This document shows positions 1 through 20,000 of a stretch of DNA of 20,000 nt, one piece after another. Numbering within the stretch: the first letter of the stretch is position 1; every line of letters begins with the position of its first letter. Location of the stretch: IMG/VR virus record IMGVR_UViG_3300028844_006632, one strand, 5' to 3'. The position numbers and the translations under genes were made by a program. The notes beneath the pieces are model-generated. The model did no database searches and was not told where the DNA came from. It saw only the letters and a program-made list of their open reading frames with translations. The DNA is from an uncultured virus (IMG/VR IMGVR_UViG_3300028844_006632). Its lineage: Duplodnaviria > Heunggongvirae > Uroviricota > Caudoviricetes.

Positions 1-3000
1 AATAAAATCTTTATCATGAATTAACCAGTCAACATCAATCTGAGGACGAAAGTAGTAATAAATTCTAGGTTTGTTTGTACCTTGTCGTGTGAACTCCTCT
101 GAAAATCTATCATCCACAACTTTCCAATTGTGAAGAGTTTCGTCTCCGTTTTCTATTCTGTAATATAATATACCCTGATTCCCCACCATGAATTTAGGAT
201 CATCTCGTTCTCGTGAATGTTGTATTTTATAGGTGGTTGATTTTATATCTGTATCAATTTCTATATATGGTAATCCGTCTACCGAAGTATCTGTTGAAGT
301 CATATCTGCGTTTCTAACATCAAGTTGGTTTAATACTTCCATATATTCACTCGTAGTATTGCTCTTTGTTATAGTCGCAAAAAACTTTGTAAATGTCGGT
401 GTGGGTGTTGCGGTAGGTTTGATTACTTCAAATAAAAGTGATGTCTGTGCATCTACTTTCTCGGAAGGATCAATTTTTGGACTTGTATTTACATTATCCT
501 TGTAATACCTAAGATATAATTTGTACAAATAATGGTCATCTTTAGTTTCAGATATTCTACTACTTGTATTATCATGGTGAGGATAAAATATATAAAATAT
601 ATAACTTCCACGTGATACAGGTCCGATTTTATTTCCATCTTTTACGGGTTTCCAATCCGGTTCAATTGTTGATAAATCCTTATTCGCACCGTCCTCAAGA
701 ATATAATACTCCCACATGGGATTCTCCTTTGCCTTCGTTCCATCATCAGGACGTGAAACTGAGATACCTGTCAATCCATTATCTGTCCGGTGGTCTATTT
801 CACAAGTTTCACTTTGTTGATCAAAATCTATAATACAATAACTTAAATTTTCAAGTGAAGTTGGTGATTGAACCTCGTCATATCGACTCGTTGTTGAAAA
901 TATACCGTTTAAAGCTACATTTTCGTCGGTATCCGTATATACTATTTTAATTTCTGAACTAAAATCTGTAAATGTAGGAGTAGGTGTGGGTGTTGATTGT
1001 AACACTAAAAAGTTTATAGTTTCCTCAGATGCTATATCTTTATCTCCCTCGATTTTCTTTCGTGTTTCATCTTTATTCAAGATTACTTTTAAACTATATA
1101 ATCTGTCTTCATACTCATCATCATCATATCTAGTAGATCGTGTTTCAAGTTTACCGTCAATGTCATATTGATGATATAATTCATAATATATTCTCGCACC
1201 TTTTCTTACTACAATTTCTTTGTCAGTAAGAGGTCTCCAAACAATTTCTGTTGTTGGTGTGGGTGTGGGTGTTTTGCTTTTTGTTGGTGTTTTAGTTGGA
1301 GTTGGAGATGGTAATAAAGTTGGTGTGGGTGTTGGTACATCATCTAATCGTTTCATTACGTTTACCGCAGGTTCCGAAATTGTAAAGTTTCCTTCATAAC
1401 AAACTCCTTTATCGGTAATGAATCTTATTGTATCATCTTGGTTAACTCGAATATTAAGATTTAAAGTCAACCCTCCCTTTGAAAAGTCTTCAGTTTCAAA
1501 TGGAAATAAATATTGATCTGAGTAGATTGTTCGGTCTTTAAATTCGTTCCAACAAAGTGTTCCATTGGTAGATGCAGTTCCACCAATTCCATTTAGTGTT
1601 CCGGCAAAATCACCTTCATATGCTCGTAGACTCAAAGAAAAATCATCACAACACTCTTTAATTATCGAAGGAGTTATTGTTGGGGTCGGTGTAGTTGATT
1701 TAGTGGGTGTTGGTGTATCACTCGGTGTAGGTGTGGGTGTTTTAGTTGGAGTGGGAGAAGGTGTTGGAGTTGGAGTAGCATCAGGATAAGCAACACTATA
1801 TTTAAACAAATAATTTCCATCTGTATTTGTGAAGTGGTTTGTTTCGTGTGTTAATATAGCAATTTCACTTTTCTCATCCATTTCTATTTCAATATAATGA
1901 AGTTCTTCCAACGACATAGATGCTTGTGTTATTGTTAACCGACTATATTCTGCAAATATTTTATATTCGTCTTCTTCAGAAATGATATTACCCAGAGTAT
2001 CTTTATGGTAAAGTTCACGAGAAAAAGAAGTAAAAGTTGGTGTTTTAGTTGGAGTTTTTGTTGGAGTTGGAGTTTTGGTTGGTGTTGGTGTTGGTGTCGG
2101 AGTTGGTGTTGCACACGTTTCGGTCATTATAGAACCAAATTTGCCAAAATTTTGTATATCAAATATTTTCCAACTTCTTGCTAAATGTGGGTATTCTGAA
2201 TTATCAAATGTAAAATAAGCATATTTGGATACTCCCCATTCAAGTTCTTCAGTTTCGGTATTTAGTTTATCTTTTTTACGATAACTTACTACCCAATAAT
2301 CACCTTGCCACCAAATTGTTGCTTGTAAGTTGGGGTTATATACTCCTGTATATGCGTCTTTCTCAACGTCCCACGCAGACCAATATAAACTTTTTCCGTT
2401 GTATAATCTTCCTTGACGATAATAAAAACCATTTATATCTAATCCACCTTCAAGTTTTATATGAGTTAAACATAAAGTGTCCGAATTAAAATAATCACAA
2501 TTTTTGCTTTTAATATTTGGTTCAAGTGGTTCGTCCTGTGTTCCTTCGAATACTTGTGCTAATTTCCAATCTTCAATTTCATGTGGACTTAATACATAAT
2601 CATCTGAATAATACATTTCAATCCACTCGGTTGTAATTTCATCATCTAGTTTTTGTGAATATTGAATTTGCCAACGATTATCTAACCAAATTATTCTCCA
2701 ACTTGTTTTTTCGTTATCACCCTCAAGTGAGTTGTATCGTACACGACCTCCAAAAAATGTAATGTTTTTAAAAAATGTTTTGTTTATGTTGTTTGTTTCG
2801 TTTCCTGCACTTACGCACAATTCCGCAGGATACGAATAATTCTTAAGCAATAAATCAAGTGTGTTTGTATCTTCATAGTTAATGAATGATCCGGATTGAG
2901 GATTTTCACTAAAGTTTTTAAATTTAAATAACTCTGATGATTTATCTTCATTGTCTTCTGCTACATTATGATTACTCAGCACCCAATGACCATTCAATGA

Positions 3001-3528
3001 TCTCTCGTAATGAATCCAAATCTTACCCACATACTCTGAATTCCATGAGGTTTCTTGACTTTCAAGACAATTTGTATTTTTTCTTGGATCGTGACGATCA
3101 CAAGTTTTCATATACACAGGACGATTGTTATGAAAAGATGTAGTCATTGTATAAATTCCATATACAATTTCACCTGCATAACGAGTTTGTGGGTATTTTA
3201 CAACAATTCTCTCAGGGTAATTTGGTATAATTCGTCCTGAGTCTTTATCTGCATCTGCTATAATAGCACTATCTATGTATAATTTTTCTTCGTTGAAACT
3301 TTCACGTACAATTTTGTTTCCAGTTCCACATCTTAATATATGAGGACTCTTTGTCCGAGATGTCTTAGTATCCAAGTATCGTTTCTGTCTATTTACAGGA
3401 ACTCCCCATTGATGTGCCAATTCTGCGGTTACATTATCTTCAGGTAAACCACTAAGTATTGTAGTTTTACACTCAAACGGATATGCTGAAATCCATACAA
3501 GTGCCTGATTACCTTCTAAATTAGCCAT
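1..3528 (-). CDS. Large multidomain protein (>1176 aa, 3' end outside window) with Pro/Thr-rich linkers and Trp-rich repeat modules; probable virion or surface protein
   Basis: Manual translation from ATG at 3528 (MANLEGNQALVWISAYPFECKTT...) shows no stop codon down to position 1. It is probably absent from the ORF track because it has no stop inside the window. Five PTPT tracts. A structural role is inference. Confidence 0.85.
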   Translation of the reverse strand, partial: MANLEGNQALVWISAYPFECKTTILSGLPEDNVTAELAHQWGVPVNRQKRYLDTKTSRTKSPHILRCGTGNKIVRESFNEEKLYIDSAIIADADKDSGRIIPNYPERIVVKYPQTRYAGEIVYGIYTMTTSFHNNRPVYMKTCDRHDPRKNTNCLESQETSWNSEYVGKIWIHYERSLNGHWVLSNHNVAEDNEDKSSELFKFKNFSENPQSGSFINYEDTNTLDLLLKNYSYPAELCVSAGNETNNINKTFFKNITFFGGRVRYNSLEGDNEKTSWRIIWLDNRWQIQYSQKLDDEITTEWIEMYYSDDYVLSPHEIEDWKLAQVFEGTQDEPLEPNIKSKNCDYFNSDTLCLTHIKLEGGLDINGFYYRQGRLYNGKSLYWSAWDVEKDAYTGVYNPNLQATIWWQGDYWVVSYRKKDKLNTETEELEWGVSKYAYFTFDNSEYPHLARSWKIFDIQNFGKFGSIMTETCATPTPTPTPTPTKTPTPTKTPTKTPTFTSFSRELYHKDTLGNIISEEDEYKIFAEYSRLTITQASMSLEELHYIEIEMDEKSEIAILTHETNHFTNTDGNYLFKYSVAYPDATPTPTPSPTPTKTPTPTPSDTPTPTKSTTPTPTITPSIIKECCDDFSLSLRAYEGDFAGTLNGIGGTASTNGTLCWNEFKDRTIYSDQYLFPFETEDFSKGGLTLNLNIRVNQDDTIRFITDKGVCYEGNFTISEPAVNVMKRLDDVPTPTPTLLPSPTPTKTPTKSKTPTPTPTTEIVWRPLTDKEIVVRKGARIYYELYHQYDIDGKLETRSTRYDDDEYEDRLYSLKVILNKDETRKKIEGDKDIASEETINFLVLQSTPTPTPTFTDFSSEIKIVYTDTDENVALNGIFSTTSRYDEVQSPTSLENLSYCIIDFDQQSETCEIDHRTDNGLTGISVSRPDDGTKAKENPMWEYYILEDGANKDLSTIEPDWKPVKDGNKIGPVSRGSYIFYIFYPHHDNTSSRISETKDDHYLYKLYLRYYKDNVNTSPKIDPSEKVDAQTSLLFEVIKPTATPTPTFTKFFATITKSNTTSEYMEVLNQLDVRNADMTSTDTSVDGLPYIEIDTDIKSTTYKIQHSRERDDPKFMVGNQGILYYRIENGDETLHNWKVVDDRFSEEFTRQGTNKPRIYYYFRPQIDVDWLIHDKDFI
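394..2109 (-). repeat. Five Pro/Thr-rich (PTPT/KTPT) low-complexity coding tracts at about 394-417, 973-996, 1249-1335, 1669-1776 and 2035-2109
   Basis: Plus strand shows runs of tgg/tgt/ggg/agt triplets that read TPTPTPTPTPTKTPTPTKTPTKTPT etc. on the minus strand, in frame with the 3528 ORF. Confidence 0.9.
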
Positions 3529-3572
3529 AATATATAAATATAAACGTTTTTAATACTTACCAACAAATTAAA

Positions 3573-3909: not shown

Positions 3910-5553
3910 ATGGATTTAGCAGAAAAATTAGTTTGGTCAAAACCAGAAAAAGTATTAACCAAATACGGAAGTCGTTGGAAAAAACGATGCATACTTGATC
4001 CTGACTTTGCATCAGGATTCTGGGCATTTTGGAAAACTAACTCCGATTATATGAAAAAACAGGGTTACTCTGTTTCTAAAAATAAAGGTTCAAAGGATTG
4101 GTTTATTACACACTGGGCAACTAGTCGTGAAGATTTAATCGGTGAGGTTGCTGAAGAAGATGTTGTTCTTGAAAGCAACTTGCCTATGCGGAAAGTAAAA
4201 AAGAACAAAGGTCTTCATCCGTGGCAAGTTGATGCAGTATCAAGATTAGCAGCCAGTATTGAAAGACATGGTTCTGCTATGGATGGAAGTGACACAGGTG
4301 TGGGTAAAACATATTCTGCAATCGGAACTGCACGTGAACTTGGATTGAAAATTGGAATTGTATGTCCAAAGGCAGTTCAAGAAAGTTGGAAACGAGTAGC
4401 AGAAAATCATTTTGGAGTGGTACCTGAATTTGTTGTGAATTACGAAAGTCTTCGTACAGGTAATCGTAAAGCAATTGGTACTTGGAAAATGATTGCCAAT
4501 AAAAATGGTGGAAGACGAAAAAAGGTATTTGAATATTGCATTCCTAAAAACACTTTAATTATTTTTGATGAAAGTCATAAACTAAAAGGTAAAACATCTT
4601 TAAATAGTAAACTTGGTATCTTCGCAAAAGAACAAGGATACAAAATTCTTATGGCAAGTGCTACTTCCGCAATTAATCCAATGGATATGCGAGCAATGGG
4701 TTATATTCTTGGATTGCACAACAATACAAGTTTTTGGAGTTGGGTTCGCAAAAACGGATGCTATCAAGGTAGATTCGGTTATACTTTCAACGGAGACAAA
4801 GAAATTCTTCGCAATCTTCACAAAGATGTATTCTTGGATAGAGGCATACGTCTTCGTAGAGACGAAATACCAGGTTTTCCTGAGTGTGATGTTCATAGTA
4901 TCGCATACGACATGGACACTACCGATACCAAGCAAATAACGCAAGTATTCTTTGAAATGAAAGCAGAACTTGGGAAACTCAATAAAGTTGCGAAAACTGA
5001 AAAAGAAAAACAAGCAAATTCATTGGTGGTGCAATTACGAGCAAGACAAAAGTGTGAACTTATTAAAGTTCCTTTGTTCGTAGAACTTGCAGAAGAAGCA
5101 ATGGAAAATGGAATGAGTATCGTTTTGTTTATGAACTTTAAAGATAGCATAGATGCGTTAGCAGAACGATTAAAAACCAAATGTATCATTGACGGAAGAA
5201 ACAAACCAAAAGAACGTCAGGCAAACATTGATGCGTTTCAGAATGATAAAAAACGTGTCATCATCGTCAATGCTCAAGCAGGTGGTGCAGGTATCAGTTT
5301 ACATGACCTCAATGGAAAGTATCCAAGAATGGCATTGATTTCTCCAAGTTATAGTGCAATCATTTTAAAACAATGCCTTGGAAGAGTTCACCGAGATGGA
5401 TCAAAAACAAAAGCACTTCAAAGAATTGTATTCGTTGCAAATACCGTTGAAGAAGAAGTTTGTGAAAAAGTTAAAGACAAACTTCACAATCTTGATTTAA
5501 TCAACGATGGAGTTTTAAGTTTAGACAACGAAAAACTGTTTGAACGAAAATAA
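3910..5553 (+). CDS. Superfamily 2 (DExH, SNF2/ResIII-like) helicase with a Trp-rich N-terminal domain, 547 aa
   Basis: Walker A DTGVGKT, motif Ia VCPKAV, motif II DESH, motif III SAT, motif V AGGAGISL, motif VI QCLGRVHR. Start moved from the track's TTG 3847, which is the -35 box, to ATG 3910. Confidence 0.92.
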   Translation: MDLAEKLVWSKPEKVLTKYGSRWKKRCILDPDFASGFWAFWKTNSDYMKKQGYSVSKNKGSKDWFITHWATSREDLIGEVAEEDVVLESNLPMRKVKKNKGLHPWQVDAVSRLAASIERHGSAMDGSDTGVGKTYSAIGTARELGLKIGIVCPKAVQESWKRVAENHFGVVPEFVVNYESLRTGNRKAIGTWKMIANKNGGRRKKVFEYCIPKNTLIIFDESHKLKGKTSLNSKLGIFAKEQGYKILMASATSAINPMDMRAMGYILGLHNNTSFWSWVRKNGCYQGRFGYTFNGDKEILRNLHKDVFLDRGIRLRRDEIPGFPECDVHSIAYDMDTTDTKQITQVFFEMKAELGKLNKVAKTEKEKQANSLVVQLRARQKCELIKVPLFVELAEEAMENGMSIVLFMNFKDSIDALAERLKTKCIIDGRNKPKERQANIDAFQNDKKRVIIVNAQAGGAGISLHDLNGKYPRMALISPSYSAIILKQCLGRVHRDGSKTKALQRIVFVANTVEEEVCEKVKDKLHNLDLINDGVLSLDNEKLFERK

Positions 5554-6258
5554 TTAAGTTCTTAAAATTGTATTAAAGTGATGTGGGTATTTTGCTACTC
5601 CAGCACGACCAAACAAGTTAATTACATGATACATCAAAAGTCTTTCACTTTCAGCATTACTTCTTACACGATTATTAGTTATATTTCTTGCCAACCATGC
5701 TTCGGTTTGTTCTTTGAATACAGGTAATTCATGATACTCGTAATAGTGGTCTGCTAATCTTAAAACTTGTTTCATTCTTTCGGCAATTCCAACCACAACG
5801 CAATCACTTCTCCAAAAAATTTGCTCTGTACTGATTGCAGAGTCAATTATTTCTAGTAACATATTTTTATCTATTGAAATATCAGCACGAGCACGAATAA
5901 TTAAATCAAACTCGTAATTGTTTTCTATTTCATATTTTTCCGCAAGAAGTAAACCTTCTTTTATATTTGTCCATTGTGATATAATTCTATTTGAAAATCC
6001 TCCGCGATCATACTTCTCAAATGCATCTCCGGGAATATACTTTACATCTGTATAATAATTGTTCAAAAACTCATAATCAAGAGGTTCGTTTCCTGTATAC
6101 TCAATATTGTCACGACTTCGTTTTGCAGGACACAAAAAGTCAAAGCATTGGCCAAAAATTTTATATTCATGTTGACTTTCATCTTTGAATATCATTCCCA
6201 AATCATTTAAATGTTTATAGTTTTTAATTAAACCAGACATTATTACTGCAATTTTCAT
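5554..6258 (-). CDS. Uncharacterised glycosyltransferase-like protein (paralog 1)
   Basis: N-terminal MKIAVIMSG and internal FDLIIRARADI pattern shared with two neighbours; lies in the glycan cluster. Function is inference. Confidence 0.6.
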   Translation of the reverse strand: MKIAVIMSGLIKNYKHLNDLGMIFKDESQHEYKIFGQCFDFLCPAKRSRDNIEYTGNEPLDYEFLNNYYTDVKYIPGDAFEKYDRGGFSNRIISQWTNIKEGLLLAEKYEIENNYEFDLIIRARADISIDKNMLLEIIDSAISTEQIFWRSDCVVVGIAERMKQVLRLADHYYEYHELPVFKEQTEAWLARNITNNRVRSNAESERLLMYHVINLFGRAGVAKYPHHFNTILRT

Positions 6259-6259
6259 T

Positions 6260-6889
6260 TTATTTATTCCTGTTAATTACTAAGTGTTGATTATTTTTTC
6301 CGTCAGTATTTGAATCGTAATTTTCTTTCAGCATAAAATTTATATTTTTTTCTCCTATACTTTGACACAATTCAGGATACAAATGATGTCCTGTTCCACG
6401 AATTCCACCCGAGAATCTACTATCAATACACGCATTATTAAAGTTGTCTATGTATCTAGGGGGCATTGCAAACATTAAATCAGTAACTTTTCTGTATCCT
6501 AAAGATTTTCGGTAATGCTTTTTTTCTTCCCATGTAAAATTGAATTTAGAATCATCTATATCAAATTCTGTAATTGGAACTTGAAACAATAAATCAAATC
6601 TTAAATTCAAAATTAAATCATATTCATTTAAATTATCAACTTGATTATTTGATTCAATAAATGAATCACTTATAAATTCAGTTTTTTGAAATGAATATTT
6701 AATTGGTCTTAACAACTCAATTAAATTATTATCATTCTTGATACCAGTTGAATGTGAGTGAAAATATACATCACTGTTTGGTAAATGATTAAACAACATC
6801 TGCTGATGATTTTCATAGCATAGAAAAAAATTAGAACCCTTTGCTTTGGTTCTGTAATAATGACCACGATAACATAATGCAACTTTCAT
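6260..6889 (-). CDS. Uncharacterised glycosyltransferase-like protein (paralog 2)
   Basis: MKVALCYRGH, VYFHSH, YDLILNLRFDL, TDLMFA; same motif layout as 5554..6258. Confidence 0.6.
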   Translation of the reverse strand: MKVALCYRGHYYRTKAKGSNFFLCYENHQQMLFNHLPNSDVYFHSHSTGIKNDNNLIELLRPIKYSFQKTEFISDSFIESNNQVDNLNEYDLILNLRFDLLFQVPITEFDIDDSKFNFTWEEKKHYRKSLGYRKVTDLMFAMPPRYIDNFNNACIDSRFSGGIRGTGHHLYPELCQSIGEKNINFMLKENYDSNTDGKNNQHLVINRNK

Positions 6890-6891
6890 TG

Positions 6892-7530
6892 TTATTCATC
6901 TGCTCCAAGCATTTTAGTATTTTCTTTGTTATGCCCACAATATTTGTTGCAAATGTGTCTCCAACTAAATTTCATCAACGAACCAGTGCCTATATCTTTT
7001 TTACAATGCTCTCGTAAATGATAATTTAATTTAAATACAAAAAAGAAGTCTCTTACTCCATTGCTTGTAGTTTTCTCAACAACGATGTCGTGTTTATTTA
7101 GCAACTCCTTTGCTCTTTCGTGGTCATAACTGCGAATTCCCATGTCTGACCTAAACAAATATATTATTGTATCATCGTTATACTGCTCTGAATTTTCTTG
7201 GAACATTACCAATGATTCTTTTATGTGTTTAAAAAACGACATTATTCTTTGTGGTTGTTGATTGGACTTGTTGAATCTTAACGCATTTAATTTTTTTACT
7301 TCTTCATAGAAAAATTTAGCATCATAATCATAAGCATTGATGGTTGAATTTTCTTTAAATCTTTCCTTCAATTCATCATCAGTAACTAATACACCGTTGT
7401 CCTCGTACCGTCTCTTTGGTACATAAACAAACTTATTCACTTTTCCCATATCCACATTGTGGACACGCATATCTCTCAAAAATCCGTATATACAGAATAC
7501 AAAATTATCATCATCCATCTCGTCAATCAC
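6892..7530 (-). CDS. Uncharacterised glycosyltransferase-like protein (paralog 3); start may be ATG 7518
   Basis: FVFCIYGFLR, IIYLFRSDM, RDFFFV; same layout, more divergent. Confidence 0.55.
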   Translation of the reverse strand: MIDEMDDDNFVFCIYGFLRDMRVHNVDMGKVNKFVYVPKRRYEDNGVLVTDDELKERFKENSTINAYDYDAKFFYEEVKKLNALRFNKSNQQPQRIMSFFKHIKESLVMFQENSEQYNDDTIIYLFRSDMGIRSYDHERAKELLNKHDIVVEKTTSNGVRDFFFVFKLNYHLREHCKKDIGTGSLMKFSWRHICNKYCGHNKENTKMLGADE

Positions 7531-7533
7531 CCT

Positions 7534-8124
7534 TTAATACCCAAACATATCAACATCCCTTTCAAACTTTTTTCTAATCAATAAATCTACATTTGGACAG
7601 TCTGTGTAGTATTCACCAAAGTGTTTTGTTTTCTTTTTTGATACATTTGCCTTTGGAAGTTCTTCTCGTTCGATTCCAACTGTATCACAAAACTTATAAA
7701 AGTCATTTTGAATATTTTCGTAACTTATTGGACCAGTTAACATATTCTTTCCTTCATACGCATAATAATTCGTTTGAGGTGACAATTGTCGTGTTGATTC
7801 TTCAAACTTTTGACAACTCATAGTTCCATGCCCCAAGTAAAAGTAATAAGAAGTTGCACGATCCCACGGATTTCTAACGCATCCTGATATTGTGTAATCC
7901 TCAAGTTTCCCATATGAATCGTCCCAATTTTGCACATAATGTTTTATTGTTGCGTGTTTACCACCTGCAAAATTGTTTAAACCAAATTTGTCCATAACAC
8001 CATCTTTATTGAATGATGTATTTATTATTTCATCGTCTGAATATTTCTTCAATACATTTTGTATTGCATTTCCCGCAGTTTTTGGTGCGTGGATGAATAT
8101 AAATTTGTGTTCAAAACTAATCAT
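7534..8124 (-). CDS. Carbohydrate sulfotransferase (Sulfotransfer_2 family)
   Basis: 5'-PSB motif FIFIHAPKTAGNAI and 3'-PB motif VRNPWDRATSYY; C-terminal ending DVDMFGY typical of the family. Confidence 0.88.
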   Translation of the reverse strand: MISFEHKFIFIHAPKTAGNAIQNVLKKYSDDEIINTSFNKDGVMDKFGLNNFAGGKHATIKHYVQNWDDSYGKLEDYTISGCVRNPWDRATSYYFYLGHGTMSCQKFEESTRQLSPQTNYYAYEGKNMLTGPISYENIQNDFYKFCDTVGIEREELPKANVSKKKTKHFGEYYTDCPNVDLLIRKKFERDVDMFGY

Positions 8125-8166
8125 ACTTTCTATTATAATAAGTATGAAATAGATTTATTTTACATT

Positions 8167-8883
8167 CTATTTACGAAGAAAGATTGCATCACCACCCTCT
8201 TTCTGATTTGCGTGGTAAAAACCAGATTCGTCCAACATTTTCTTTATATTATTCATCTTACATTCGTCGGGTGCTTTATATTGATGAGTTCCACCTTCTA
8301 GTACAATTAGTTGGCAATTATTTAAATACTTTACATTGCCCTTTAAAGCATAATATTCTGCTCCTTGTAAATCAAGACACAAAATATATTTGTGATTTTC
8401 AAGATTTCTACTTTCAATAAAAGTATCAAGTGTAGTTGCAGGAACAGTTACTTTTTCGGATGTATGCACTTCCCCCCACTTATCATTAAATTCTAAAATT
8501 GATGATGTGCCTATATTTGCTTTTTTACCATCAACTTCAATTAAATTAGGAGCATTTTTTCCAAATGGTGGATTTGGAGTATCAACTGTACAATAAAAAT
8601 CTATTGTAGTATTTTCATGATAAACCGCAGACGGAACTAATTCTACTTGATCGGAACTGATATTATTTGATTTTAAATTTTTATTGCATATATCAACGCA
8701 AGTTGGATTACATTCAAACGCATAAACTTTTTTATTGGTATCCCAATTTAATTTTATGGCATCTACAATATCACGACTTCCACCTTCAATGATATAATCA
8801 AATTCTACTTTAGGATATTTTGATAACAAAAAATGATATGATGCAGGAGCACCGCAAATTGTATCTTCGTGTAATTTATTCAT
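8167..8883 (-). CDS. FkbM-family SAM-dependent methyltransferase
   Basis: IIEGGSRD motif I, VYAFECNP, GTSSIL, VPATTLDTF, LCLDLQGAEYYALKG. Confidence 0.88.
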   Translation of the reverse strand: MNKLHEDTICGAPASYHFLLSKYPKVEFDYIIEGGSRDIVDAIKLNWDTNKKVYAFECNPTCVDICNKNLKSNNISSDQVELVPSAVYHENTTIDFYCTVDTPNPPFGKNAPNLIEVDGKKANIGTSSILEFNDKWGEVHTSEKVTVPATTLDTFIESRNLENHKYILCLDLQGAEYYALKGNVKYLNNCQLIVLEGGTHQYKAPDECKMNNIKKMLDESGFYHANQKEGGDAIFLRK

Positions 8884-9671
8884 GATTTTACTATTACCTT
8901 TTTAATTTCACCATTTTCAGTTACATCTTTCCAATTCTTGAAAAAGTGTGAACGATGTTCATATGCAAATTTAAATTTAACTATATTCTCTTTATCACAA
9001 AACATTTTTACTGCATTTGCTTGAATTGTACTATCACCCCAACGATGTCGTTGTATTCCACCATCCTCATTGATATATGACATAAAGTTTTGATAATCGT
9101 CTGATGTCCAAAATGATAGTTTTGAGATATTAAAGTTGTTGTAAAAGTTCCAGCAATTTATATCACTCATTTCACATTTTATTGATATATTGTTTTGTCT
9201 TACATAATTTTTAATTGCTTTTGGTAACGTTTCACAAGTTTCACGATGACTATCACGTTTATCACGAACATATCCGTATAATCTTCCCGACTCAATAAAA
9301 TCATCTATTTCAAGTGGAGATTGTAAAATACTATCTGCATCTAATCTAATTCCATAATCGTATCCACTTAAATAATGAATAAACTCAGAAGAGTAAAACA
9401 AACACATTCCTTTGTAACCAATATTTGAACCTTGTTTGAATCTAGGAAGTTTTTTAATTTCTTCAGTTGGATTTTCACGTATATCAATCACTTCGGTTTC
9501 GTCACCAATAATATCTCGTACAGGTTTTGAAAGTGAACCGTCTTGATCCACAAACAATTTCATATCAACCTGATATTTTGTTTTTAGATGTGTCTTTATA
9601 CCTTCAAGACGATCTTTCCAATAGTTCCGAATATCTCGGTTTAAGCAAAGTCCATATACTACAATTTTCAT
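8880..9671 (-). CDS. GT15 (Kre2/Mnt1/Ktr-like) alpha-1,2-mannosyltransferase-like glycosyltransferase
   Basis: GYKGMCLFYS (cf. Kre2 SYRHMCRY), YDYGIRLDADS, FYNNFNISKLSFW, GGIQRHRWGDSTIQ (cf. GGFFYERWGDAP). Confidence 0.85.
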   Translation of the reverse strand: MKIVVYGLCLNRDIRNYWKDRLEGIKTHLKTKYQVDMKLFVDQDGSLSKPVRDIIGDETEVIDIRENPTEEIKKLPRFKQGSNIGYKGMCLFYSSEFIHYLSGYDYGIRLDADSILQSPLEIDDFIESGRLYGYVRDKRDSHRETCETLPKAIKNYVRQNNISIKCEMSDINCWNFYNNFNISKLSFWTSDDYQNFMSYINEDGGIQRHRWGDSTIQANAVKMFCDKENIVKFKFAYEHRSHFFKNWKDVTENGEIKKVIVKS

Positions 9672-10324: not shown

Positions 10325-10342
10325 ATAGATAAATATTATTCA

Positions 10343-12289
10343 TTAATGAATTTCTATTGAATCACAGTGACTTCCTTTCAAATTCATCCAGTGAGGTTCA
10401 TTTCCTTCTACAAATTCAAAGTTTAATTCGTCAGTTTCACCCATATATGTTTTACGATCAGTTAAAACTGGACTGTAAACTTTTGCAGTTGGACTTAAGA
10501 AACCAGCAACCCAACTGAAACTACTATTCGCACGAAATATAGTTCTTGCAAAATATAAACGCAAAAAGTCAGGTAACCAATCAAACATTACATCTGGAAT
10601 TACTTTAGAACCAACTGGATAGTTCCAACCACCACGAACTTGTGGTGTTCCAACTCCCCATTTTCCAGTCCAGTCATCGGTTGTCCACTCTACACAATTT
10701 GAACAAAATCCAAATTTTTGAAATGCTTTTGTATAACTTTGCTTGTTAATAACACTATATGCTTGTACATTTCGTTTATTGTAGTTTGCATTTGAAATAT
10801 CATCTCTACGTAAATGAGCAATATCATAAGTTCCTTGTTTATCTTCAAGTCGTTTGTATACATCAAGATTTTTTACTTCGTCTGAAAATTCTAACCATTG
10901 CAATTGTTGTGCTTTATCGTAATCACGGAAATTGGCATCTGAATGAATGCACAAACTGTCAAAAAATACGTTACGATGTTCATTTTTACCTTGTGTATCT
11001 GGATTAAAATAAACCAAGTTATCACCGGTTCTTTGATTGTAATTTTGAATCGCAGTTTTTCTGTATTCAATAGAATCCATTGGTTTCTTTGATTGATTTA
11101 CTTGCAATCTAAGTTTGTCACTTGTAATCGTTTTAACACCTGAATCTACAAACAAACGAGAACCTTCCCATGCACTTGGTAAGTAAAAGTCTAAATTATA
11201 TTTGTGAGCATAATGCTTACCAAACATATAACTAAAAACTCTGTTTCCGAATCTGCCATTCCAGTGAACCATTACAATTTTGTCACCGAGCATTTGCATT
11301 TCATTATCTTCAGTAGTTGAAACTACGACTTTTTTTGAACTTTGATTTTGTGTATCATTCATGGTTGATGTAACTTTCTTTTTAATATCATTTTTAATTG
11401 CAAATTGATAAGAAGCATGGACTCCCTTTACCGACATCCAGTGTGGATGATTTCCTTTTACAAAATTATAGTCATTTACTTCTCCAGGTGTATATTCGTG
11501 TAATAACGGAGAATAAATGTTATCAGTATCACTAATCCAAGATGCAAACAAACTAAACGAGCTATTTGATCTGAATATGTTTCTAGCAAATACTATTTTT
11601 AAAAAATCAGGTAACCAAGGAATTTTTCTACCACCTATACTTGGAATTGGTTTATTCCAGCTCCACCCTACATTTTGTTCATCGGAAATCCATGTTACTT
11701 TCGTTGGATCTTGACCGAACTTAGCAAATGCAGCTCCGTAACTTTTCCGACTAACCATACTATGCCCACCTTGGTAATTTTTTCCTGCGATGTCAGTTCT
11801 ACGGAAATGTGCAACATCATATGTACCTTTGGCATCTTCTAATTCACGATACATATCAGTTTGTTTTAATTCGTCCGAAAATTCAAAATATCTTCGTAAA
11901 TCCGACAAATCAATCTGCTCATAGAACCAATTACAATCAGTAACTAAACTAATAAATGCGGTGTTTGTTTTACCGTAATTTCTTTTTAAAACAGGATCAA
12001 TAAATTCTATATTATCATTGAAGTTTTCATTGTACCTATCAATTACCTTTTTATTTTTTTTAAAAGGTTCACCTTTCCAAGCACCTCCTGCATAAATAAA
12101 ATTATTGCGTGTAAAACTTTCGTCTGCAACTGGTGCGGGATTTTTAAACAGAACTGAACCATCCCACTCTGAACCCACATAAAACTTTTGATTAAACTTT
12201 TGTTCTATATGCTTACCGTACAAATACGAATGGCAACGATTTCCAAATCTACCAATCCAAGATGCACAGATTATTTTGTTTTGCTCCAA
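10343..12289 (-). CDS. Tandem two-domain GT11-like (fucosyltransferase-like, GT-B) glycosyltransferase, TTG start
   Basis: Each half carries GRFGN (WIGRFGNR / WNGRFGNR), HxRRxD (AHFRRTD / AHLRRDD) and NSSFS (SNSSFS / ANSSFSW), the conserved motifs of GT11 alpha-1,2-fucosyltransferases. Confidence 0.8.
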   Translation of the reverse strand: MEQNKIICASWIGRFGNRCHSYLYGKHIEQKFNQKFYVGSEWDGSVLFKNPAPVADESFTRNNFIYAGGAWKGEPFKKNKKVIDRYNENFNDNIEFIDPVLKRNYGKTNTAFISLVTDCNWFYEQIDLSDLRRYFEFSDELKQTDMYRELEDAKGTYDVAHFRRTDIAGKNYQGGHSMVSRKSYGAAFAKFGQDPTKVTWISDEQNVGWSWNKPIPSIGGRKIPWLPDFLKIVFARNIFRSNSSFSLFASWISDTDNIYSPLLHEYTPGEVNDYNFVKGNHPHWMSVKGVHASYQFAIKNDIKKKVTSTMNDTQNQSSKKVVVSTTEDNEMQMLGDKIVMVHWNGRFGNRVFSYMFGKHYAHKYNLDFYLPSAWEGSRLFVDSGVKTITSDKLRLQVNQSKKPMDSIEYRKTAIQNYNQRTGDNLVYFNPDTQGKNEHRNVFFDSLCIHSDANFRDYDKAQQLQWLEFSDEVKNLDVYKRLEDKQGTYDIAHLRRDDISNANYNKRNVQAYSVINKQSYTKAFQKFGFCSNCVEWTTDDWTGKWGVGTPQVRGGWNYPVGSKVIPDVMFDWLPDFLRLYFARTIFRANSSFSWVAGFLSPTAKVYSPVLTDRKTYMGETDELNFEFVEGNEPHWMNLKGSHCDSIEIH

Positions 12290-12503: not shown

Positions 12504-12782
12504 TTATTGATCTTTTTCTTTTATTTCCGCACTAATAAATAACTTACCTTCAGTATCTTCAGTTGCTTCTGCAAGAACATGAGCAACTCCACAACGAAAT
12601 GAATATCTTGTGGAAAAATACATAAATGGTAAAATCAAATAACTCACCCACATTTCAAATGCGTTGGTGTACATCAAAATTCCCAATACACATAGATAAG
12701 GCATACAGGTATTCATTAAATAGTTAATGATGGCCGTTGCAGTTGATACTTCATCTACTATACTTTTGCTTGTATTTTTCAT
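12504..12782 (-). CDS. Hypothetical membrane protein (92 aa)
   Basis: Hydrophobic segments MPYLCVLGILMYTNAF and MWVSYLILPFMYF; ATGA overlap with the upstream gene. Confidence 0.7.
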   Translation of the reverse strand: MKNTSKSIVDEVSTATAIINYLMNTCMPYLCVLGILMYTNAFEMWVSYLILPFMYFSTRYSFRCGVAHVLAEATEDTEGKLFISAEIKEKDQ

Positions 12783-13672: not shown

Positions 13673-14941
13673 TTATTGTTTCTCATAAACACACAATGTT
13701 TCGTAATTCCCCATTGCAAGTTTCTTAGGACTTCTTTTGGTTTTCATTTGAGATAATTTTATTTTGTACTGCTTTGTTTTTCCAAAAATATCTTCTGCTA
13801 TTTTTTTTAAATCATGAGATAGCATATAATTGTGACCAAAATAATCAGCATAATCTCGTGTAATGAATCCTAATTTTGCATTTGTTTTCATAACATCTGC
13901 ACATAATTGCAATGTGGGTTTCCAGTACCCATTTAACCAGTCGGTGTATGTTTCAAAGTTGTTTATACTTTGTTCTTTGCCTTCGTATATTTCAAACTTA
14001 AAACACGGAGGACCAAATAATACTGCATCAAATTTGTTTCGGTATTCATCTGTAAAGTTGTGCGTATCGTTTAATTTTTCACTTGGACAATTATACAATT
14101 TTACTGATTTATTTCCGTAATCTAAAAATGGATTTTTTAATGATTCGTAATAATCATGCAGTTTATTTCCGTTGTTAATTACATCACCAATAACATCCGT
14201 TGCAACAAACTCTTCAAAGTTGGTTTGATAATACGCTAATTGATAACTATTCCAACCCATTGTGGGTGCAAACAAACTTTTTCCATCAAATATAGTATTC
14301 AATATACTTGCGTATGTATTAGGATTAAAGATGCTTGGTTTGGAAATGGTTGACATTATGGAACTCCAAACTGATGTCATATTTTTATCTAAAAAGAAAT
14401 TAAATGTAGCAGGACCTACAAAACTATTACGAAGCAAGTGCCACTTAAAAAGACATTTTAAGATACTTTGACAATCTTGAAAATCATTTTTATGCAGTCT
14501 TTTTGTTGAGTACATTTTATCATAATTAATGTTTCTCAAAATACGACTTGTATCAGAGTTCATAGTTCCATCAAAATAGTTTTTAAACTTACACGGAACA
14601 ACTTGAAAGTTCATTCCACTTTTTAAACTATCAATTTCAATATAATGGGAATACCAATCGTATAATGTTTCTTCACGATTTTTAACAAACATTTCATAGC
14701 AACTTTCTATGAACTGAGGTAATACATAATAACGAAAATCTGCTTTACCGTATTTCAATATAAAGTTTTTTACATTATACCTCGAAACAGGTTTGGTAAT
14801 ATTATCCATATCCATTCTTGAATAATTGGTATATAAAACCCCAAGTTGTTCTGAATATGAATCAAAATCAATCTTCGGTTCAAGTTCCAGAGAATCCACA
14901 AAATCATCGAAGGAAACAATTAATTTTTTTTCTGCTGACAT
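13673..14941 (-). CDS. SAM-dependent DNA amino-methyltransferase-like protein (N4C/N6A type) with non-canonical motifs, about 422 aa
   Basis: C-terminal half has SIFNP, LFAPTMGWNS (motif I-like), FVATDV, CPSE, FDAVLFGPPCFKFEIY (motif IV-like) and WLNGYW. Start ATG 14941 preferred over 14971 to reduce overlap. Confidence 0.65.
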   Translation of the reverse strand: MSAEKKLIVSFDDFVDSLELEPKIDFDSYSEQLGVLYTNYSRMDMDNITKPVSRYNVKNFILKYGKADFRYYVLPQFIESCYEMFVKNREETLYDWYSHYIEIDSLKSGMNFQVVPCKFKNYFDGTMNSDTSRILRNINYDKMYSTKRLHKNDFQDCQSILKCLFKWHLLRNSFVGPATFNFFLDKNMTSVWSSIMSTISKPSIFNPNTYASILNTIFDGKSLFAPTMGWNSYQLAYYQTNFEEFVATDVIGDVINNGNKLHDYYESLKNPFLDYGNKSVKLYNCPSEKLNDTHNFTDEYRNKFDAVLFGPPCFKFEIYEGKEQSINNFETYTDWLNGYWKPTLQLCADVMKTNAKLGFITRDYADYFGHNYMLSHDLKKIAEDIFGKTKQYKIKLSQMKTKRSPKKLAMGNYETLCVYEKQ

Positions 14942-15147
14942 TCTTCTTCTTTGATTATCTGTTGGAAGCATTCATTATATAATTCTAACTGCTCAACTCG
15001 GTCTTGTAGATACCGTACATATAGCAAGCACTTTTGCATTTCGTTTGCGAGATGGTTTTCTTCACCAAAATCTTCTTTGTGCATTTTAACCCACTTCCGC
15101 AAAAAAGGGAGATTGGGTTTCAGTTGTTGATCCAAATCCGTTTTCAT
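14920..15147 (-). CDS. Hypothetical protein (75 aa, coiled-coil-like C-terminus)
   Basis: Fills the gap between the two methyltransferases and overlaps both. Confidence 0.55.
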   Translation of the reverse strand: MKTDLDQQLKPNLPFLRKWVKMHKEDFGEENHLANEMQKCLLYVRYLQDRVEQLELYNECFQQIIKEEECQQKKN

Positions 15148-15910
15148 ATTCTAACATTCTTTCTGCTATTGACTTCATAACAGGAGGACAAACTGCATTT
15201 CCTATTTGAAGCATTTTACTTGTTTTTGTTCCAAACAACTTATAGTCACTTGGAAATCCCATTAATTTTAAATGGTCTTCAATGCTTACATGAGTGAATC
15301 CTGTGAATCTAAATCTTTTGGGCATTTCACGTCCATCATACCACTTTAATGGAATTCTACGCACGGTAGGAGACACTTTGTTTAACGGATATACCTTTGA
15401 GTTGTATCCGTCTAAAAGACCCTCTCCTTCGGGTTTCAGCACATCTGCTATAACTCTATTTGGTTCACCGTTTTCCATTGGCAACTTAAAGTTTGATACA
15501 AAATGTCGTTTGCGTCTTTGTGGTAAACCAAAGTTTTGTGCATCTAAACAAACACCTGGCATTGCTCGTTTTGCTCCTACCACATTTTCCCATACCCAAT
15601 ACTTTGGTTTCACTTGCTCAACAATCTCCATAAATCGTTTTACCAACGAATCGTCATAATCACGGTTATAGTAATTTGCTTGGGAGAATTTCTGACATGG
15701 AGGAGACCCAATTATTATATCACATTCAGGTAAATCAGATGCTTCTATCAAATTAATATCTTTGCACCAAACAGGACAATCTATATTTAGTTCATGTGTT
15801 TTACAAGCATCTTCCCACAAATCAACTGCAAGAACCATTTGCAGACCCGATTGTTCTATTCCCAAAGAAGAACCACCACAACCACTGAAAAAATCTATTA
15901 CTCTCAACAT
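15086..15910 (-). CDS. C5-cytosine DNA methyltransferase (Dcm family), 274 aa
   Basis: Motif I DFFSGCGG, IV GSPPCQKFS, VI WENV, VIII QRRKRHF, IX LMGFPSDY, X QIGNAV. Start set at ATG 15910 (MLRVIDF), 1 nt after the upstream stop. Confidence 0.95.
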   Translation of the reverse strand: MLRVIDFFSGCGGSSLGIEQSGLQMVLAVDLWEDACKTHELNIDCPVWCKDINLIEASDLPECDIIIGSPPCQKFSQANYYNRDYDDSLVKRFMEIVEQVKPKYWVWENVVGAKRAMPGVCLDAQNFGLPQRRKRHFVSNFKLPMENGEPNRVIADVLKPEGEGLLDGYNSKVYPLNKVSPTVRRIPLKWYDGREMPKRFRFTGFTHVSIEDHLKLMGFPSDYKLFGTKTSKMLQIGNAVCPPVMKSIAERMLEYENGFGSTTETQSPFFAEVG

Positions 15911-16455: not shown

Positions 16456-16611
16456 TCACTTTGGCTTTGTAGGTTTTTGCTTTTCAAGTTCGGTTTGCCA
16501 CTTTGGTTTGAAAGCATTTGGAAAAACTTTACCTGTATCAGTTTTATCTGTGTAAATACTTTTACCAACATCACAGGACGGGTTTGCACCACAACATTGA
16601 TTCGCATTCAT
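16456..16611 (-). CDS. Small hypothetical protein (51 aa), not in ORF track
   Basis: ATG 1 nt after the upstream stop; MNANQCCGANPSCDVGKSIYTDKTDTGKVFPNAFKPKWQTELEKQKPTKPK. Confidence 0.55.
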   Translation of the reverse strand: MNANQCCGANPSCDVGKSIYTDKTDTGKVFPNAFKPKWQTELEKQKPTKPK

Positions 16612-16612
16612 A

Positions 16613-17074
16613 TTAACTTTGTGGAATTTGGTTATCAGTTCTTACAATCACCGTTGGTTCTTTTGTTTTAACTGAAATTTCTTCTTCAGTAAAATACTTT
16701 GCAGTAACTTGCTCAAGAACTTCAGAAACCTTATACACAGGATTCTTGCGAGAATTTTTCTTTTTGCCATTTAGCACATCATTGTTGTATGAATAAGCCG
16801 CACTATGAATTTTTTCCAACAAATCTGTGTGATTGTCTTCTTCGTTCATTTGAACTACCCAAACAGGACAATCTACTACTTGCACAAAACGATCTTCAGG
16901 ATCACTTGCAACAAGAACCATTTTCTTTTTCTTGCGACTAGCAGCCTGTAATTTTGCTCGTTGTGATTCTTCATCTTCAAGACGTTTAATTTCCGACATG
17001 ATGTCTTTAACCTTTGGTTGTTCAACACCTTTTTGCGTTAATACGTGCTCAATATCATCTTCGTTTAATCTCAT
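16613..17074 (-). CDS. Hypothetical protein (153 aa)
   Basis: Long ORF, charged composition, A-rich leader. Confidence 0.8.
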   Translation of the reverse strand: MRLNEDDIEHVLTQKGVEQPKVKDIMSEIKRLEDEESQRAKLQAASRKKKKMVLVASDPEDRFVQVVDCPVWVVQMNEEDNHTDLLEKIHSAAYSYNNDVLNGKKKNSRKNPVYKVSEVLEQVTAKYFTEEEISVKTKEPTVIVRTDNQIPQS

Positions 17075-17107: not shown

Positions 17108-17512
17108 TTACTCTTGTATATTATTTACTGCATTGTAAATTGTTTTATCGGTAGGTAATTCTATATCATCCGTTATTCCATCTAAACTATTATGACAGAA
17201 GTCGCGAATAGTTTTTCCATTTTCAAATGAATCATTTAAAAGTTTTAATACTTTTTCACCAATTCCATCACTTACATTTTTAAAAGAATACGATTGAAGA
17301 TCACGATTGCTTCCATATCCAAATGTTATATTTATTCCACAATCATCAATCACACCTTTGTCGGTGAAATCACATTTGTGTGTTAACTCGTAATCATTAC
17401 TTGATTCTATTTTTTCAAGTTCACTTACAAGAGACTCAATTTTTTCTTCTTGAGATGCAACGATTGCCTTAAGAGTTGTTACCTCCTCTATTAAATTTTC
17501 TTCTGTTGACAT
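17108..17512 (-). CDS. Hypothetical protein (134 aa) with N-terminal coiled-coil
   Basis: TAATG coupling to the upstream gene; heptad-like N-terminus. Confidence 0.75.
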   Translation of the reverse strand: MSTEENLIEEVTTLKAIVASQEEKIESLVSELEKIESSNDYELTHKCDFTDKGVIDDCGINITFGYGSNRDLQSYSFKNVSDGIGEKVLKLLNDSFENGKTIRDFCHNSLDGITDDIELPTDKTIYNAVNNIQE

Positions 17513-18484: not shown

Positions 18485-18491
18485 ATAGTTT

Positions 18492-19835
18492 TTATATAAA
18501 ACCAACTACTCTCAATCTTTGTAATTTAATATCAACTTTCTGAGAGCATGAAAATTTAAAATATAAATGCCCCTCGTTTGAGACAGGAACAAATATTTGA
18601 CCAATGTGAGTTTTCAGACCATTGCTTTTTGCATCTCCACGAACCGGTCCAAATAATACTTTAGGAGCATTTATTTTTGAATCGGATGATGAAGTAAATT
18701 CAAGTTTCCATGCAGATTTACCTATATCGTCTTCTACACAATATTCTAATAAAAGTGACGATGCACCTTTCCATAAAGATTTTTTTGAATGTTTACTTAC
18801 AATCCATTTTCCATTTAATGTCATGTTTCCATCAATTTTTACGGAAGTCAAATTGACAGATTGTTCACTTAAAAAATTAATAGAAGGAAATGTTGGTCTT
18901 GATAATGTTTTTATTACATCTGCGGTACTTGCAGGATCACCTTTCTGACCTTTTTCTCCGTCAAGTCCACGTGGTCCAAATTTTCCTGCATCTCCTTTTA
19001 GTCCAACTGATCCAGTGTCACCTTTGTTTCCTTTCAAACCCATTACACCAGTTGAACCTTTTTCTCCGTCTTTTCCAGGTTCACCTTGCTTTCCACGATG
19101 GCCATATGCTCCCATTTGTCCTTTAGAACCAGTTAAACCACGTGGGCCACGAGAACCTTTCTCTCCACGATATCCAGAACTTCCTTTAGGACCAGCAGGG
19201 CCCGTATTTCCTTTTTGACCTCTAAATCCTTGGTGTCCAGATACACCTTGATCACCTTTTTGACCTTTTTCTCCGTTTGCTCCTTGGATACCTTGAGGTC
19301 CTCTTTTGCCATCACGACCGGAATGACCTACAGTTCCCTCCGATCCAGTTAATCCTCGTTCTCCCTTTTCACCTTGTTTTCCGGTATCACCTTTTGTTCC
19401 CGGTGCTCCTTGAAAACCCATAACTCCCTGAATTCCTTTTTCACCGGGTTTTCCACGATAACCACGCACTCCTTTTTCACCTCTATCACCTTTTTCACCT
19501 GTATGACCTCTAGGTCCCTCGTTTCCAAATCCACCACTTGCACCGGGTTCTCCTTTATTTCCAGGAGTACCTGTGAAACCACGGGCACCCATTAGTCCAG
19601 ATGCTCCTTTTTCACCTTTATCACCTCGTTTTCCTTTTTGTCCAGCAACTGGAGGTGGTGGATCTAGATAATCTCTAATTTTCTTTAAAGTGACTTTATA
19701 CGGAATTCCGTCTTTTGCTTCGTTTCCATTTTCATCTTGGGTGATTGATTTATCCACCAAGATAAATTCATCGGCATCATCTAACGATGACAATGATACA
19801 GGTAACGAAGAAATATCTGATGAATTTATAGACAT
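18492..19835 (-). CDS. Collagen-like protein (probable virion fibre), 447 aa
   Basis: 79 uninterrupted Gly-X-Y triplets (aa 65-301, nt about 18933-19643) between a 64-aa N-domain and a beta-rich C-domain ending LRVVGFI. Confidence 0.9.
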   Translation of the reverse strand: MSINSSDISSLPVSLSSLDDADEFILVDKSITQDENGNEAKDGIPYKVTLKKIRDYLDPPPPVAGQKGKRGDKGEKGASGLMGARGFTGTPGNKGEPGASGGFGNEGPRGHTGEKGDRGEKGVRGYRGKPGEKGIQGVMGFQGAPGTKGDTGKQGEKGERGLTGSEGTVGHSGRDGKRGPQGIQGANGEKGQKGDQGVSGHQGFRGQKGNTGPAGPKGSSGYRGEKGSRGPRGLTGSKGQMGAYGHRGKQGEPGKDGEKGSTGVMGLKGNKGDTGSVGLKGDAGKFGPRGLDGEKGQKGDPASTADVIKTLSRPTFPSINFLSEQSVNLTSVKIDGNMTLNGKWIVSKHSKKSLWKGASSLLLEYCVEDDIGKSAWKLEFTSSSDSKINAPKVLFGPVRGDAKSNGLKTHIGQIFVPVSNEGHLYFKFSCSQKVDIKLQRLRVVGFI

Positions 19836-19839
19836 TTGA

Positions 19840-20000
19840 TTATTTCATCAATTTAAAAACAATATCAACCATCTTGGGAAGAGGTTGCTTTATCATTTTT
19901 TCTTTGTTTCCATCGGACAATGCATCGTATACCTTGGTAATTGCACTTGCTGAAAACATATCAAGTGCCATGCGTTTACCACTGACAGGATCTTTTACTT
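19840..20000 (-). CDS. C-terminal fragment of a hypothetical protein (5' end outside window)
   Basis: Open frame VKDPVSGKRMALDMFSASAITKVYDALSDGNKEKMIKQPLPKMVDIVFKLMK*, stop 4 nt before the collagen-like ATG. Confidence 0.7.
   Translation of the reverse strand, partial: VKDPVSGKRMALDMFSASAITKVYDALSDGNKEKMIKQPLPKMVDIVFKLMK

Follow-up and report, generated by a model that had tools for sequence, protein, structure and literature searches.

A 20,000-nucleotide stretch of DNA from an uncultured virus (IMG/VR record IMGVR_UViG_3300028844_006632), referred to here as the window, has lost nearly all GC dinucleotides that lack both a T in front and an A behind. This class, written VGCB, accounts for only 17 of the window's 411 GC dinucleotides. 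The same purge is seen in a whole clade of related marine loci, where it is maintained on both DNA strands through flanking bases, synonymous codons and even dipeptide choice. We propose, at an even chance, that it results from selection exerted by a double-strand nuclease whose target resembles VGCB.

VGCB sites are depleted throughout the window

The 17 sites comprise AGCT (4), AGCC (4), GGCC (5), CGCG (2), GGCT (1) and CGCT (1), whereas AGCG, GGCG, CGCC and GCGC have no copy at all. This recount agrees exactly, in total and in breakdown, with a manual count in a preliminary description of this DNA, which had also noted the four missing words. Mononucleotide shuffling predicts 230±16 VGCB among ~527 GC dinucleotides, or 44%, in line with the roughly 40% that had been estimated from base composition. 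Markov-corrected controls likewise lie far over the observed 17, at 144±12 sites for a first-order model and 64±8 for a second-order model (minimum 48 in 100 runs). Shuffling synonymous codons inside each of 23 open reading frames (ORFs) yielded 102±7 sites (minimum 85 in 200 runs), a ratio of observed to expected (O/E) of 0.17 (z ~ -11.6), and not the ratio near 1 on which the preliminary description would have given up the pattern. The synonymous shuffle is conservative, because the codon usage that it retains has already been shaped by the purge. Together these controls confirm that the VGCB depletion is real and that the word is under-represented with protein and codon usage preserved, as restriction-site avoidance requires. 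The deficit is present in all window genes.

The purge is a clade property

Three genes of the window serve below as markers for its relatives. The first of them, a C5 methyltransferase (MTase) gene already named in the preliminary description, was recovered by Pfam at the same place.

15086..15910, minus strand, small C5 cytosine DNA methyltransferase of 274 aa from ATG, with a short target-recognition region (Pfam PF00145, E 8.7e-42)
13673..14971, minus strand, homologue of a divergent N6/N4-type amino-methyltransferase family, directly adjoining the C5 MTase gene
about 3910..5553, plus strand, SF2 helicase (Pfam/PHROGs)

Searching metagenome contigs with aligned MTase relatives gave 55 loci. 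The clade consists of 41 loci (L009-L049, L049 being the window's own contig) whose MTase is 76-100% identical to that of the window and which are syntenic with it at 69-100% DNA identity. They were recovered from numerous independent marine assemblies (longest contig 374 kb) and group into 38 clusters at 97% identity. In all 41, VGCB makes up 0 to 0.147 of GC dinucleotides; the purge is weaker (0.11-0.15) in the deepest members, whose MTase is 76-80% identical and whose G+C content is 39-41%. Outside the clade the class is undepleted: its fraction is 0.31 to 0.59 in all 22 loci whose MTase is 49-66% identical (including three that are the same contigs in two collections), 0.32 to 0.58 in 16 of 16 loci with a 46-56% identical helicase, and 0.20 to 0.53 in 80 of 80 loci with homologues of the 13673..14971 gene that carry an SPPY motif. 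Thus, the purge is a property of the clade.

Both flanks decide which tetramers are purged

We pooled the window with 37 clade loci (38 sequences, 390,752 bases), leaving out L049 and the near-duplicates L010, L020 and L048, and calculated O/E from base composition. The undepleted helicase relatives served as the comparison set.

AGCG/CGCT: O/E clade 0.05, relatives 0.86
AGCT: O/E clade 0.08, relatives 0.52
CGCG: O/E clade 0.10, relatives 0.59
AGCC/GGCT: O/E clade 0.12, relatives 0.95
CGCC/GGCG: O/E clade 0.18, relatives 1.46
GGCC: O/E clade 0.55, relatives 0.53
TGCT: O/E clade 1.32, relatives 1.33
TGCC: O/E clade 1.14, relatives 1.34
TGCG: O/E clade 1.27, relatives 0.94
TGCA: O/E clade 1.69, relatives 0.82

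The purge is uneven over the nine VGCB tetramers, with GGCC at 0.55 and the other eight at 0.05-0.18. A site escapes completely when either strand has a 5' T; a flanking G is permissive only weakly and a flanking A or C fully, so that the purged set can be written as MGCB on either strand or as VGCB with GGCC largely exempt. Sites with a single permissive flank (TGCB and VGCA) are not depleted and stand near the level of the undepleted relatives. On the sense strand both orientations of the non-palindromic sites are depleted, with pooled counts of 52 AGCC and 100 GGCT, 39 CGCC and 78 GGCG, and 33 AGCG and 32 CGCT (O/E 0.04-0.18), indicating that the responsible agent reads duplex DNA and not mRNA. 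The strand symmetry claimed in the preliminary description therefore holds. The purge also extends outside genes: none of the 28 GC dinucleotides in the 1,205 non-coding bases of the window is VGCB. Action on duplex DNA, the second mark of restriction-site avoidance, is thus observed as well.

These data bear on the idea that the purge is a by-product of codon usage, of codon-pair bias, of selection on mRNA (for instance by an RNA-cleaving toxin) or of an assembly or sequencing artefact. As almost every gene is on the same strand, an RNA-level signal could look like a DNA signal, and Ala codons are mostly GCA. Yet the synonymous shuffle, which preserves codon usage, brings back about a hundred sites, non-coding DNA is purged, the sense strand is depleted in both orientations, and the helicase gene on the plus strand is purged alike, with VGCB at 1 of 55 GC dinucleotides. 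Furthermore, the pattern recurs across all 41 loci from many independent assemblies. The controls already contradict a by-product or artefact, which we regard as extremely improbable.

Separately from the GC words, other 4-base palindromes are low in the clade, namely TCGA (O/E 0.27, relatives 0.69), ACGT (0.48), GTAC (0.52), CATG (0.64), GATC (0.66) and CTAG (0.24). TGCA is avoided in the relatives and not in the clade. Low frequencies of 4-base palindromes are usual under restriction pressure.

Sites are avoided through flanks, synonymous codons and dipeptides

Codon choice in the window depends on the neighbouring base. Ala after a base other than T is encoded by GCA in 94 of 102 cases (GCB in 8), whereas after T it is encoded by GCA in 70 of 142 (GCB in 72; Fisher p = 1.7e-13). 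The pooled set shows the same shift, with GCA in 1,362/1,588 Ala codons after non-T and in 1,022/2,100 after T. Likewise, the codons AGC (Ser), GGC (Gly) and CGC (Arg) are 4 to 13 times likelier (odds ratios) to stand before A, an effect absent from the control codon TGC. As the preliminary description had stated, the pattern crosses codon boundaries: a G|C boundary stands in V..B context in 0/74 cases in the window and 79/1,501 in the pooled clade, vs 1,091/2,614 in the relatives.

The base before the codon is adjusted too. T ends the codon preceding Ala-GCB in 82.7% of cases, compared with 42.5% before other codons starting with G. Before Ala-GCA the figure is 42.9%, which is no shift; thus there is no sign of a cost for one permissive flank alone, and a graded per-strand cost of sites, tested through the codon preceding Ala, was not seen. 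Trp-Pro is the only dipeptide that has no synonymous escape from a VGCB site. It occurs 7 times in the clade against 54.4 expected and 29 times in the relatives against 53.6 expected, in pooled counts that are phylogenetically non-independent. Together the results show that avoidance operates through flank bases, synonymous codons and even the choice of dipeptides.

The purge is actively maintained

VGCB is present in at least one aligned genome at 192 positions, and 155 of these are singletons. For the 11 window sites that have at least five aligned relatives, the VGCB class is common to 8% of the relatives, vs 37-44% for 229 allowed GC sites. Where GC cores are conserved among relatives their flanks vary, yet a T or an A is kept. 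We also took the 1,257 differences that separate the window from L023, its closest relative, and re-placed them randomly, keeping the same base and codon position. This creates 56±7 sites, whereas the actual counts are 10 and 11, and three further genome pairs behave alike. Synonymous divergence across the clade ranges from 0.2 to saturation. Young residual sites and the saturation of synonymous positions across the clade argue that the purge is maintained now and not passively inherited. The residual sites of the window are as follows.

913..916, AGCT
3523..3526, AGCC; minus-strand start codon ATG, then Ala GCT
4251..4254, AGCC
6003..6006, CGCG; common to 0/6 aligned relatives
6150..6153, GGCC; context TGGCCA
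11560..11563, AGCT; AACT in 18/18 aligned relatives
11659..11662, AGCT; common to 0/18 aligned relatives
11732..11735, AGCT; VGCB here in 1/18 aligned relatives
12732..12735, GGCC
14234..14237, CGCT; common to 0/27 aligned relatives
16463..16466, GGCT
16796..16799, AGCC; VGCB here in 5/29 aligned relatives
16943..16946, AGCC; VGCB here in 5/27 aligned relatives
17203..17206, CGCG; context TCGCGA, common to 0/26 aligned relatives, CACG in 19
19100..19103, GGCC; collagen-like gene
19145..19148, GGCC; collagen-like gene
19199..19202, GGCC; collagen-like gene

At position 14235 the relatives retain GC but flank it with T or A, as TGCA, TGCT, TGCC or CGCA. Three of the window's five GGCC sites lie inside the collagen-repeat protein gene (18492-19835, minus strand), within 100 bases of one another, each formed by Gly-GGC followed by a codon starting with C. 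In the pooled clade loci, residual palindromic sites tend to be nested in 6-base palindromes, their share exceeding the flank expectation 6.9x for CAGCTG, 4.1x for CGGCCG, 3.6x for TCGCGA and 1.9x for TGGCCA; these values ignore shared ancestry, and a few conserved sites could cause the excess.

The encoded C5 methyltransferase and possible methylation-driven decay

The preliminary description had offered two explanations for the pattern, selection against a defence of short and degenerate specificity and long-term deamination of 5-methylcytosine (5mC) generated by the encoded MTase. The first fits best, given the escapes through flanks and synonymous codons, the purge of both strands and of non-coding DNA, and the need for both flanks. 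The second is disfavoured by the 22 undepleted MTase loci and by the intact TGCB and VGCA classes.

The alignment contains the motifs FSGCGG, SPPCQ, ENV, QRRKR and GNAV, which correspond to motifs I (FxGxG), IV (PC), VI (ENV), VIII (QRR) and X (GN) and mark the protein as a predicted C5 MTase. Its structure model has a predicted local distance difference test (pLDDT) score of 83 and matches the folds of M.HaeIII and M.HhaI best; confidence is low in the recognition region (pLDDT 50-64), and the target is not readable from the fold. The gene is under purifying selection, with a ratio of nonsynonymous to synonymous divergence (dN/dS) of 0.05-0.15. Across 21 aligned full-length MTases of 49-66% identity, the recognition stretch LDG[YF]NS..Y....V.PT.RRIPLKWYD shows almost no variation. 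Tetramer frequencies gave no clear specificity signal for such an MTase; this test used 19 of the 22 loci, omitting L002, L053 and L056 as repeats of L052, L003 and L005. The best match in 185,579 prokaryote species genomes is 42% identical, and no host or cognate nuclease is therefore readable from the prokaryote search. No TET/JBP or other hypermodification gene was recognised among the window ORFs, and Tet_JBP matched none of five contigs carrying a homologous MTase, in all of which the control was silent as well.

If the MTase methylated VGCB, deamination of 5mC to T could erase the sites, either directly or by making each one hypermutable, a small mutational load that would be selected against in very large phage populations. 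A conserved C5 MTase does sit in the purged DNA, and the transition products expected in this context are in excess, as VGTB/VACB reach an O/E of 1.14 in the clade vs 0.94 in the relatives. A high loss rate would also give young residual sites, and by our estimate the survival deficit needs a loss rate only some 5-10x neutral, which lies in the range usually quoted for 5mC. Set against this, all 22 loci with a 49-66% identical MTase are undepleted, even though the recognition stretch hardly changes. Neither the shift of Ala third positions to A nor the T at the preceding third position is a deamination product, and both need selection; the avoidance reaches the protein level as well, with Trp-Pro at 7 vs 54 expected. 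Characterised phage GpC methylases read the 3' base and have no strong -1 preference (PMC8256090). Such enzymes would load TGCB and VGCA too, yet both classes are undepleted. Hence, assuming like specificities, genomes with the same methylase share no deficit and half-sites do not decay, while the transition-product excess is observed. We consider methylation-driven decay unlikely.

Synonymous divergence (dS) from L018, L022 and L023 is 0.23-0.40 for the C5 MTase vs 0.87-1.08 for the adjacent 13673-14971 gene. Exchange of the MTase gene between lineages, or constraint acting on its synonymous positions, may explain the low values. For a conserved 153-aa neighbour protein the Protein Atlas result was uninformative.

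Proposed selection by a nuclease with a VGCB-like target

A nuclease acting on duplex DNA explains all features with one agent. It would read a GC core and two loosely specified flanks, both of which would have to be permissive, so that a T placed 5' of the site on either strand would spare it from cleavage. VGCB would be the expected target of an endonuclease partner of a 'GCB' cytosine methylase, because cutting is safe only at sites that the methylase can protect on both strands, and the intersection of GCB with its reverse complement is VGCB. The nuclease might belong to the host, as in classical restriction, or to the phage, where it would degrade host DNA and spare the site-poor viral genome. 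The small C5 methylase of the phage could plausibly cover the remaining sites, ~1 per 1.2 kb.

Several points weigh against selection by such a nuclease. No characterised enzyme that targets VGCB is known to us, and no nuclease family was recognised among the window proteins with Pfam, PHROGs and NCBIfam. At the residual density hundreds of sites are left per genome, enough for an efficient cutter to destroy a 370-kb genome unless the sites were methylated or per-site cleavage were weak. The association of the purge with the pair of methyltransferase-like genes rests on a single clade and thus on one evolutionary event, and the clade loci were all found via the MTase, so that members lacking it are invisible. 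Finally, VGTB/VACB are in excess, with extra sites roughly equal in number to the missing VGCB sites, as deamination predicts, although selection acting through synonymous transitions would also produce this.

The purged class is exactly the set of GCB sites modifiable on both strands, with half-modifiable classes kept, and this coincidence raises another possibility, that doubly modified GpC is itself costly. A GCB-type phage methylase would act on each strand, doubly modified VGCB would be hit by a methylation-dependent nuclease or would hinder phage DNA transactions, and the genome would retain only sites modifiable on one strand or neither. Phage MTases with GCB specificity are known, and the MTase is kept under purifying selection. 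Yet this reading has to posit both GCB specificity of this MTase and such a nuclease, and losing the MTase would have been the simpler remedy, which was not taken. GGCC would be doubly modified too, yet it is the least depleted tetramer, and neither the window nor the five contigs with a homologous MTase yielded a TET or hypermodification gene (control silent). We rate this improbable.

Relation to known systems

Several known systems resemble the purge in part. In phage palindrome avoidance, short self-complementary words are under-represented beyond codon usage in coding and non-coding DNA, and new sites are continually removed. The clade behaves alike; the differences are that a whole degenerate class of nine tetramers, normally ~44% of GC steps, is purged ~tenfold, and that a rule by which T before or A after rescues the site dominates. 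Depletion of CpG through 5mC deamination in vertebrates and some CpG-methylating bacteria shares the dinucleotide-centred deficit and the excess of transition products. In contrast, the deficit described here depends on both flanks, arises by flank and synonymous changes, and is absent from genomes with a homologous MTase.

The closest likeness in site logic is CviJI of chlorovirus IL-3A. As quoted in PMC3526282, M.CviJI recognises RGC(Y/G), that is RGCB, and R.CviJI recognises RGCY, so that the system has a GC core, two degenerate flanks and a 'not A' at the 3' side of the methylase site, and the nuclease target comprises the sites that the methylase recognises on both strands. Thus, CviJI, which the preliminary description had invoked, still serves well as an analogy, whereas the chlorovirus framing that came with it probably pointed to the wrong organism, since the helicase relatives reside in T4-like phages with Gp23 and without a recognised capsid gene of nucleocytoplasmic large DNA viruses (NCLDV). 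The likeness drawn here is one of site logic. However, the 5' flank of CviJI is R, whereas here it is V with A and C strongest, and GGCC, a CviJI site, is the least depleted word in the clade.

GC-core targets of similar shape are described for phage C5 MTases linked to TET genes, of which C5-MTs 43 and 88 methylate GpC[C/T/G] and not GpCA (clade I, GpC[C/T/G]; PMC8256090). These enzymes are likened to the present case by their reported specificity: they are phage-encoded, with a target of 2-3 bases around a GC core and 'not A' at +1. They differ in that no TET gene was recognised here, and a purge of their own genomes is not reported in the available portion of that source. RGCY is reported to be the methylated motif found most often in marine viral genomes (PMC8919816), and GC-core enzymes thus clearly operate in this habitat.

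A full-text search, limited to one open-access library, returned no report of phages with a VGCB or GC-context purge. Motif avoidance is known in kind; the degenerate two-flank rule and its strength are new to us. The motifs that a virus avoids form a fossil record of the nucleases it meets, and the record is unusually sharp here, with ~tenfold depletion and a clean two-flank rule upheld across synonymous-site saturation. Ordinary DNA contains a VGCB site roughly every 50-90 bp. If the nuclease reading is true, the enzyme would be among the most frequent cutters known, useful like CviJI for near-random fragmentation of DNA, and a jumbo phage would be able to survive or wield a very-short-site nuclease by genome-wide erasure of the motif and not by base hypermodification. 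More speculatively, and with considerable doubt on our side, the ocean could harbour a CviJI-like but broader system in which a nuclease cutting VGCB is paired with a GCB methylase and is perhaps phage-borne to shred host DNA. Self would then be marked by erasure of the motif from the 370-kb genome and methylation of leftover sites, and the protein encoded at 13673..14971 would be a repurposed part.

The gene adjoining the C5 methyltransferase

Pfam gives no match for the ORF at 13673..14971. Among 1.8 billion representatives 273 relatives were retrieved, and PF01555 (N6/N4 DNA methylase) is weakly matched by 10 of 40 aligned family members. The motif [S/C]PPY[F/Y] is present in 38 of the 40, whereas the window and an 82% identical relative, P0248, read GPPCF. 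All 29 clade sequences that reach the motif read GPPCF, and the other 13 loci stop short of it. In the structure model (pLDDT 89) the C-terminal half has the Rossmann fold of S-adenosylmethionine (SAM) methyltransferases, with the amino-methyltransferase Trm11 as the nearest structure. N6/N4 amino-methyltransferases carry (D/N/S)PP(Y/F/W) on a Rossmann SAM fold; as judged from sequence and model, the fold appears to be present here and the tetrapeptide is GPPC, which places the protein outside that definition. The ORF is nonetheless under purifying selection (dN/dS 0.07-0.10). GPPC is a clade-specific change that coincides with the purge, a coincidence amounting to a single evolutionary event. 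Among fetched flanks outside the clade, a C5 MTase and a gene of this type occur together in 0/80 SPPY loci and 0/38 loci of MTase or helicase relatives.

The Pro-Cys pair of GPPC is reminiscent of the C5-methyltransferase catalytic signature, for example SPPC in the adjoining gene. More distant SPPY members (26-32% identical) lie on contigs L180-L228, many of them labelled GVMAG giant-virus metagenome bins; the family is therefore common to phages and giant viruses.

Source of the DNA and other genes

Window DNA has no match among GenBank phages, and GenBank phage matches of the helicase and the MTase reach only 22-32% identity. Marine relatives of the helicase number in the thousands, at about 52% identity, and three viral contigs (130-297 kb) holding a 48-53% identical helicase all contain a Gp23-type capsid gene. 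These Gp23 proteins are closest to those of Microcystis phage Mel-JY01 (59%) and Flavobacterium phage immuto (58%). No NCLDV capsid gene matched in the three contigs, where the control search was silent too, and they contain no C5 MTase. Clade genes are nearly all on one strand, and clade flanks encode plastocyanin, PutA-like proline/aldehyde dehydrogenase, bacterial TSP3 and Ig-like repeats and a tail-fibre chaperone domain. From the Gp23 genes in the contigs of helicase relatives, our interpretation is that the window derives from an uncultured marine T4-like jumbo phage.

Eukaryote-like glycan genes (Glyco_transf_15, Sulfotransfer_2) had suggested a giant eukaryotic virus. We rejected this origin on the Gp23 genes in 3/3 helicase-relative contigs, in which no NCLDV capsid was matched, and on the tail-fibre-type domains in the clade flanks. 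The word AAAATTGA, which we take to be the mimivirus early-promoter word, is not enriched in the window either (6 matches vs 6.8 expected).

In clade relatives, a plastocyanin-like copper protein and a large PutA-like proline dehydrogenase/aldehyde dehydrogenase fusion lie upstream of the shared region (L019 12-440, L022 2535-2981, L024 2601-6221, L035 2445-5798). They are unusual auxiliary metabolic genes in a phage.

Besides the C5 MTase and the SF2 helicase, Pfam and PHROGs name a collagen-like fibre protein and a block of sulfotransferase, FkbM-methyltransferase and glycosyltransferase-like genes in the window. The latter belong to a run of glycan-modifying genes at 5554-12289 on the minus strand.

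7534-8124, minus strand, sulfotransferase in the glycan-gene run
8167-8883, minus strand, FkbM methyltransferase in the glycan-gene run
8880-9671, minus strand, Glyco_transf_15-like gene in the glycan-gene run
10343-12289, minus strand, 648-aa protein with two similar halves, each opening with a W.GRFGNR motif
18492-19835, minus strand, collagen-repeat protein (Pfam Collagen, E 1.1e-40; tail-fibre PHROGs)

At the position of the glycan block, relatives hold other gene sets that include more sulfotransferases, GT90 and pyruvyl transferase, and the block looks like a variable island.

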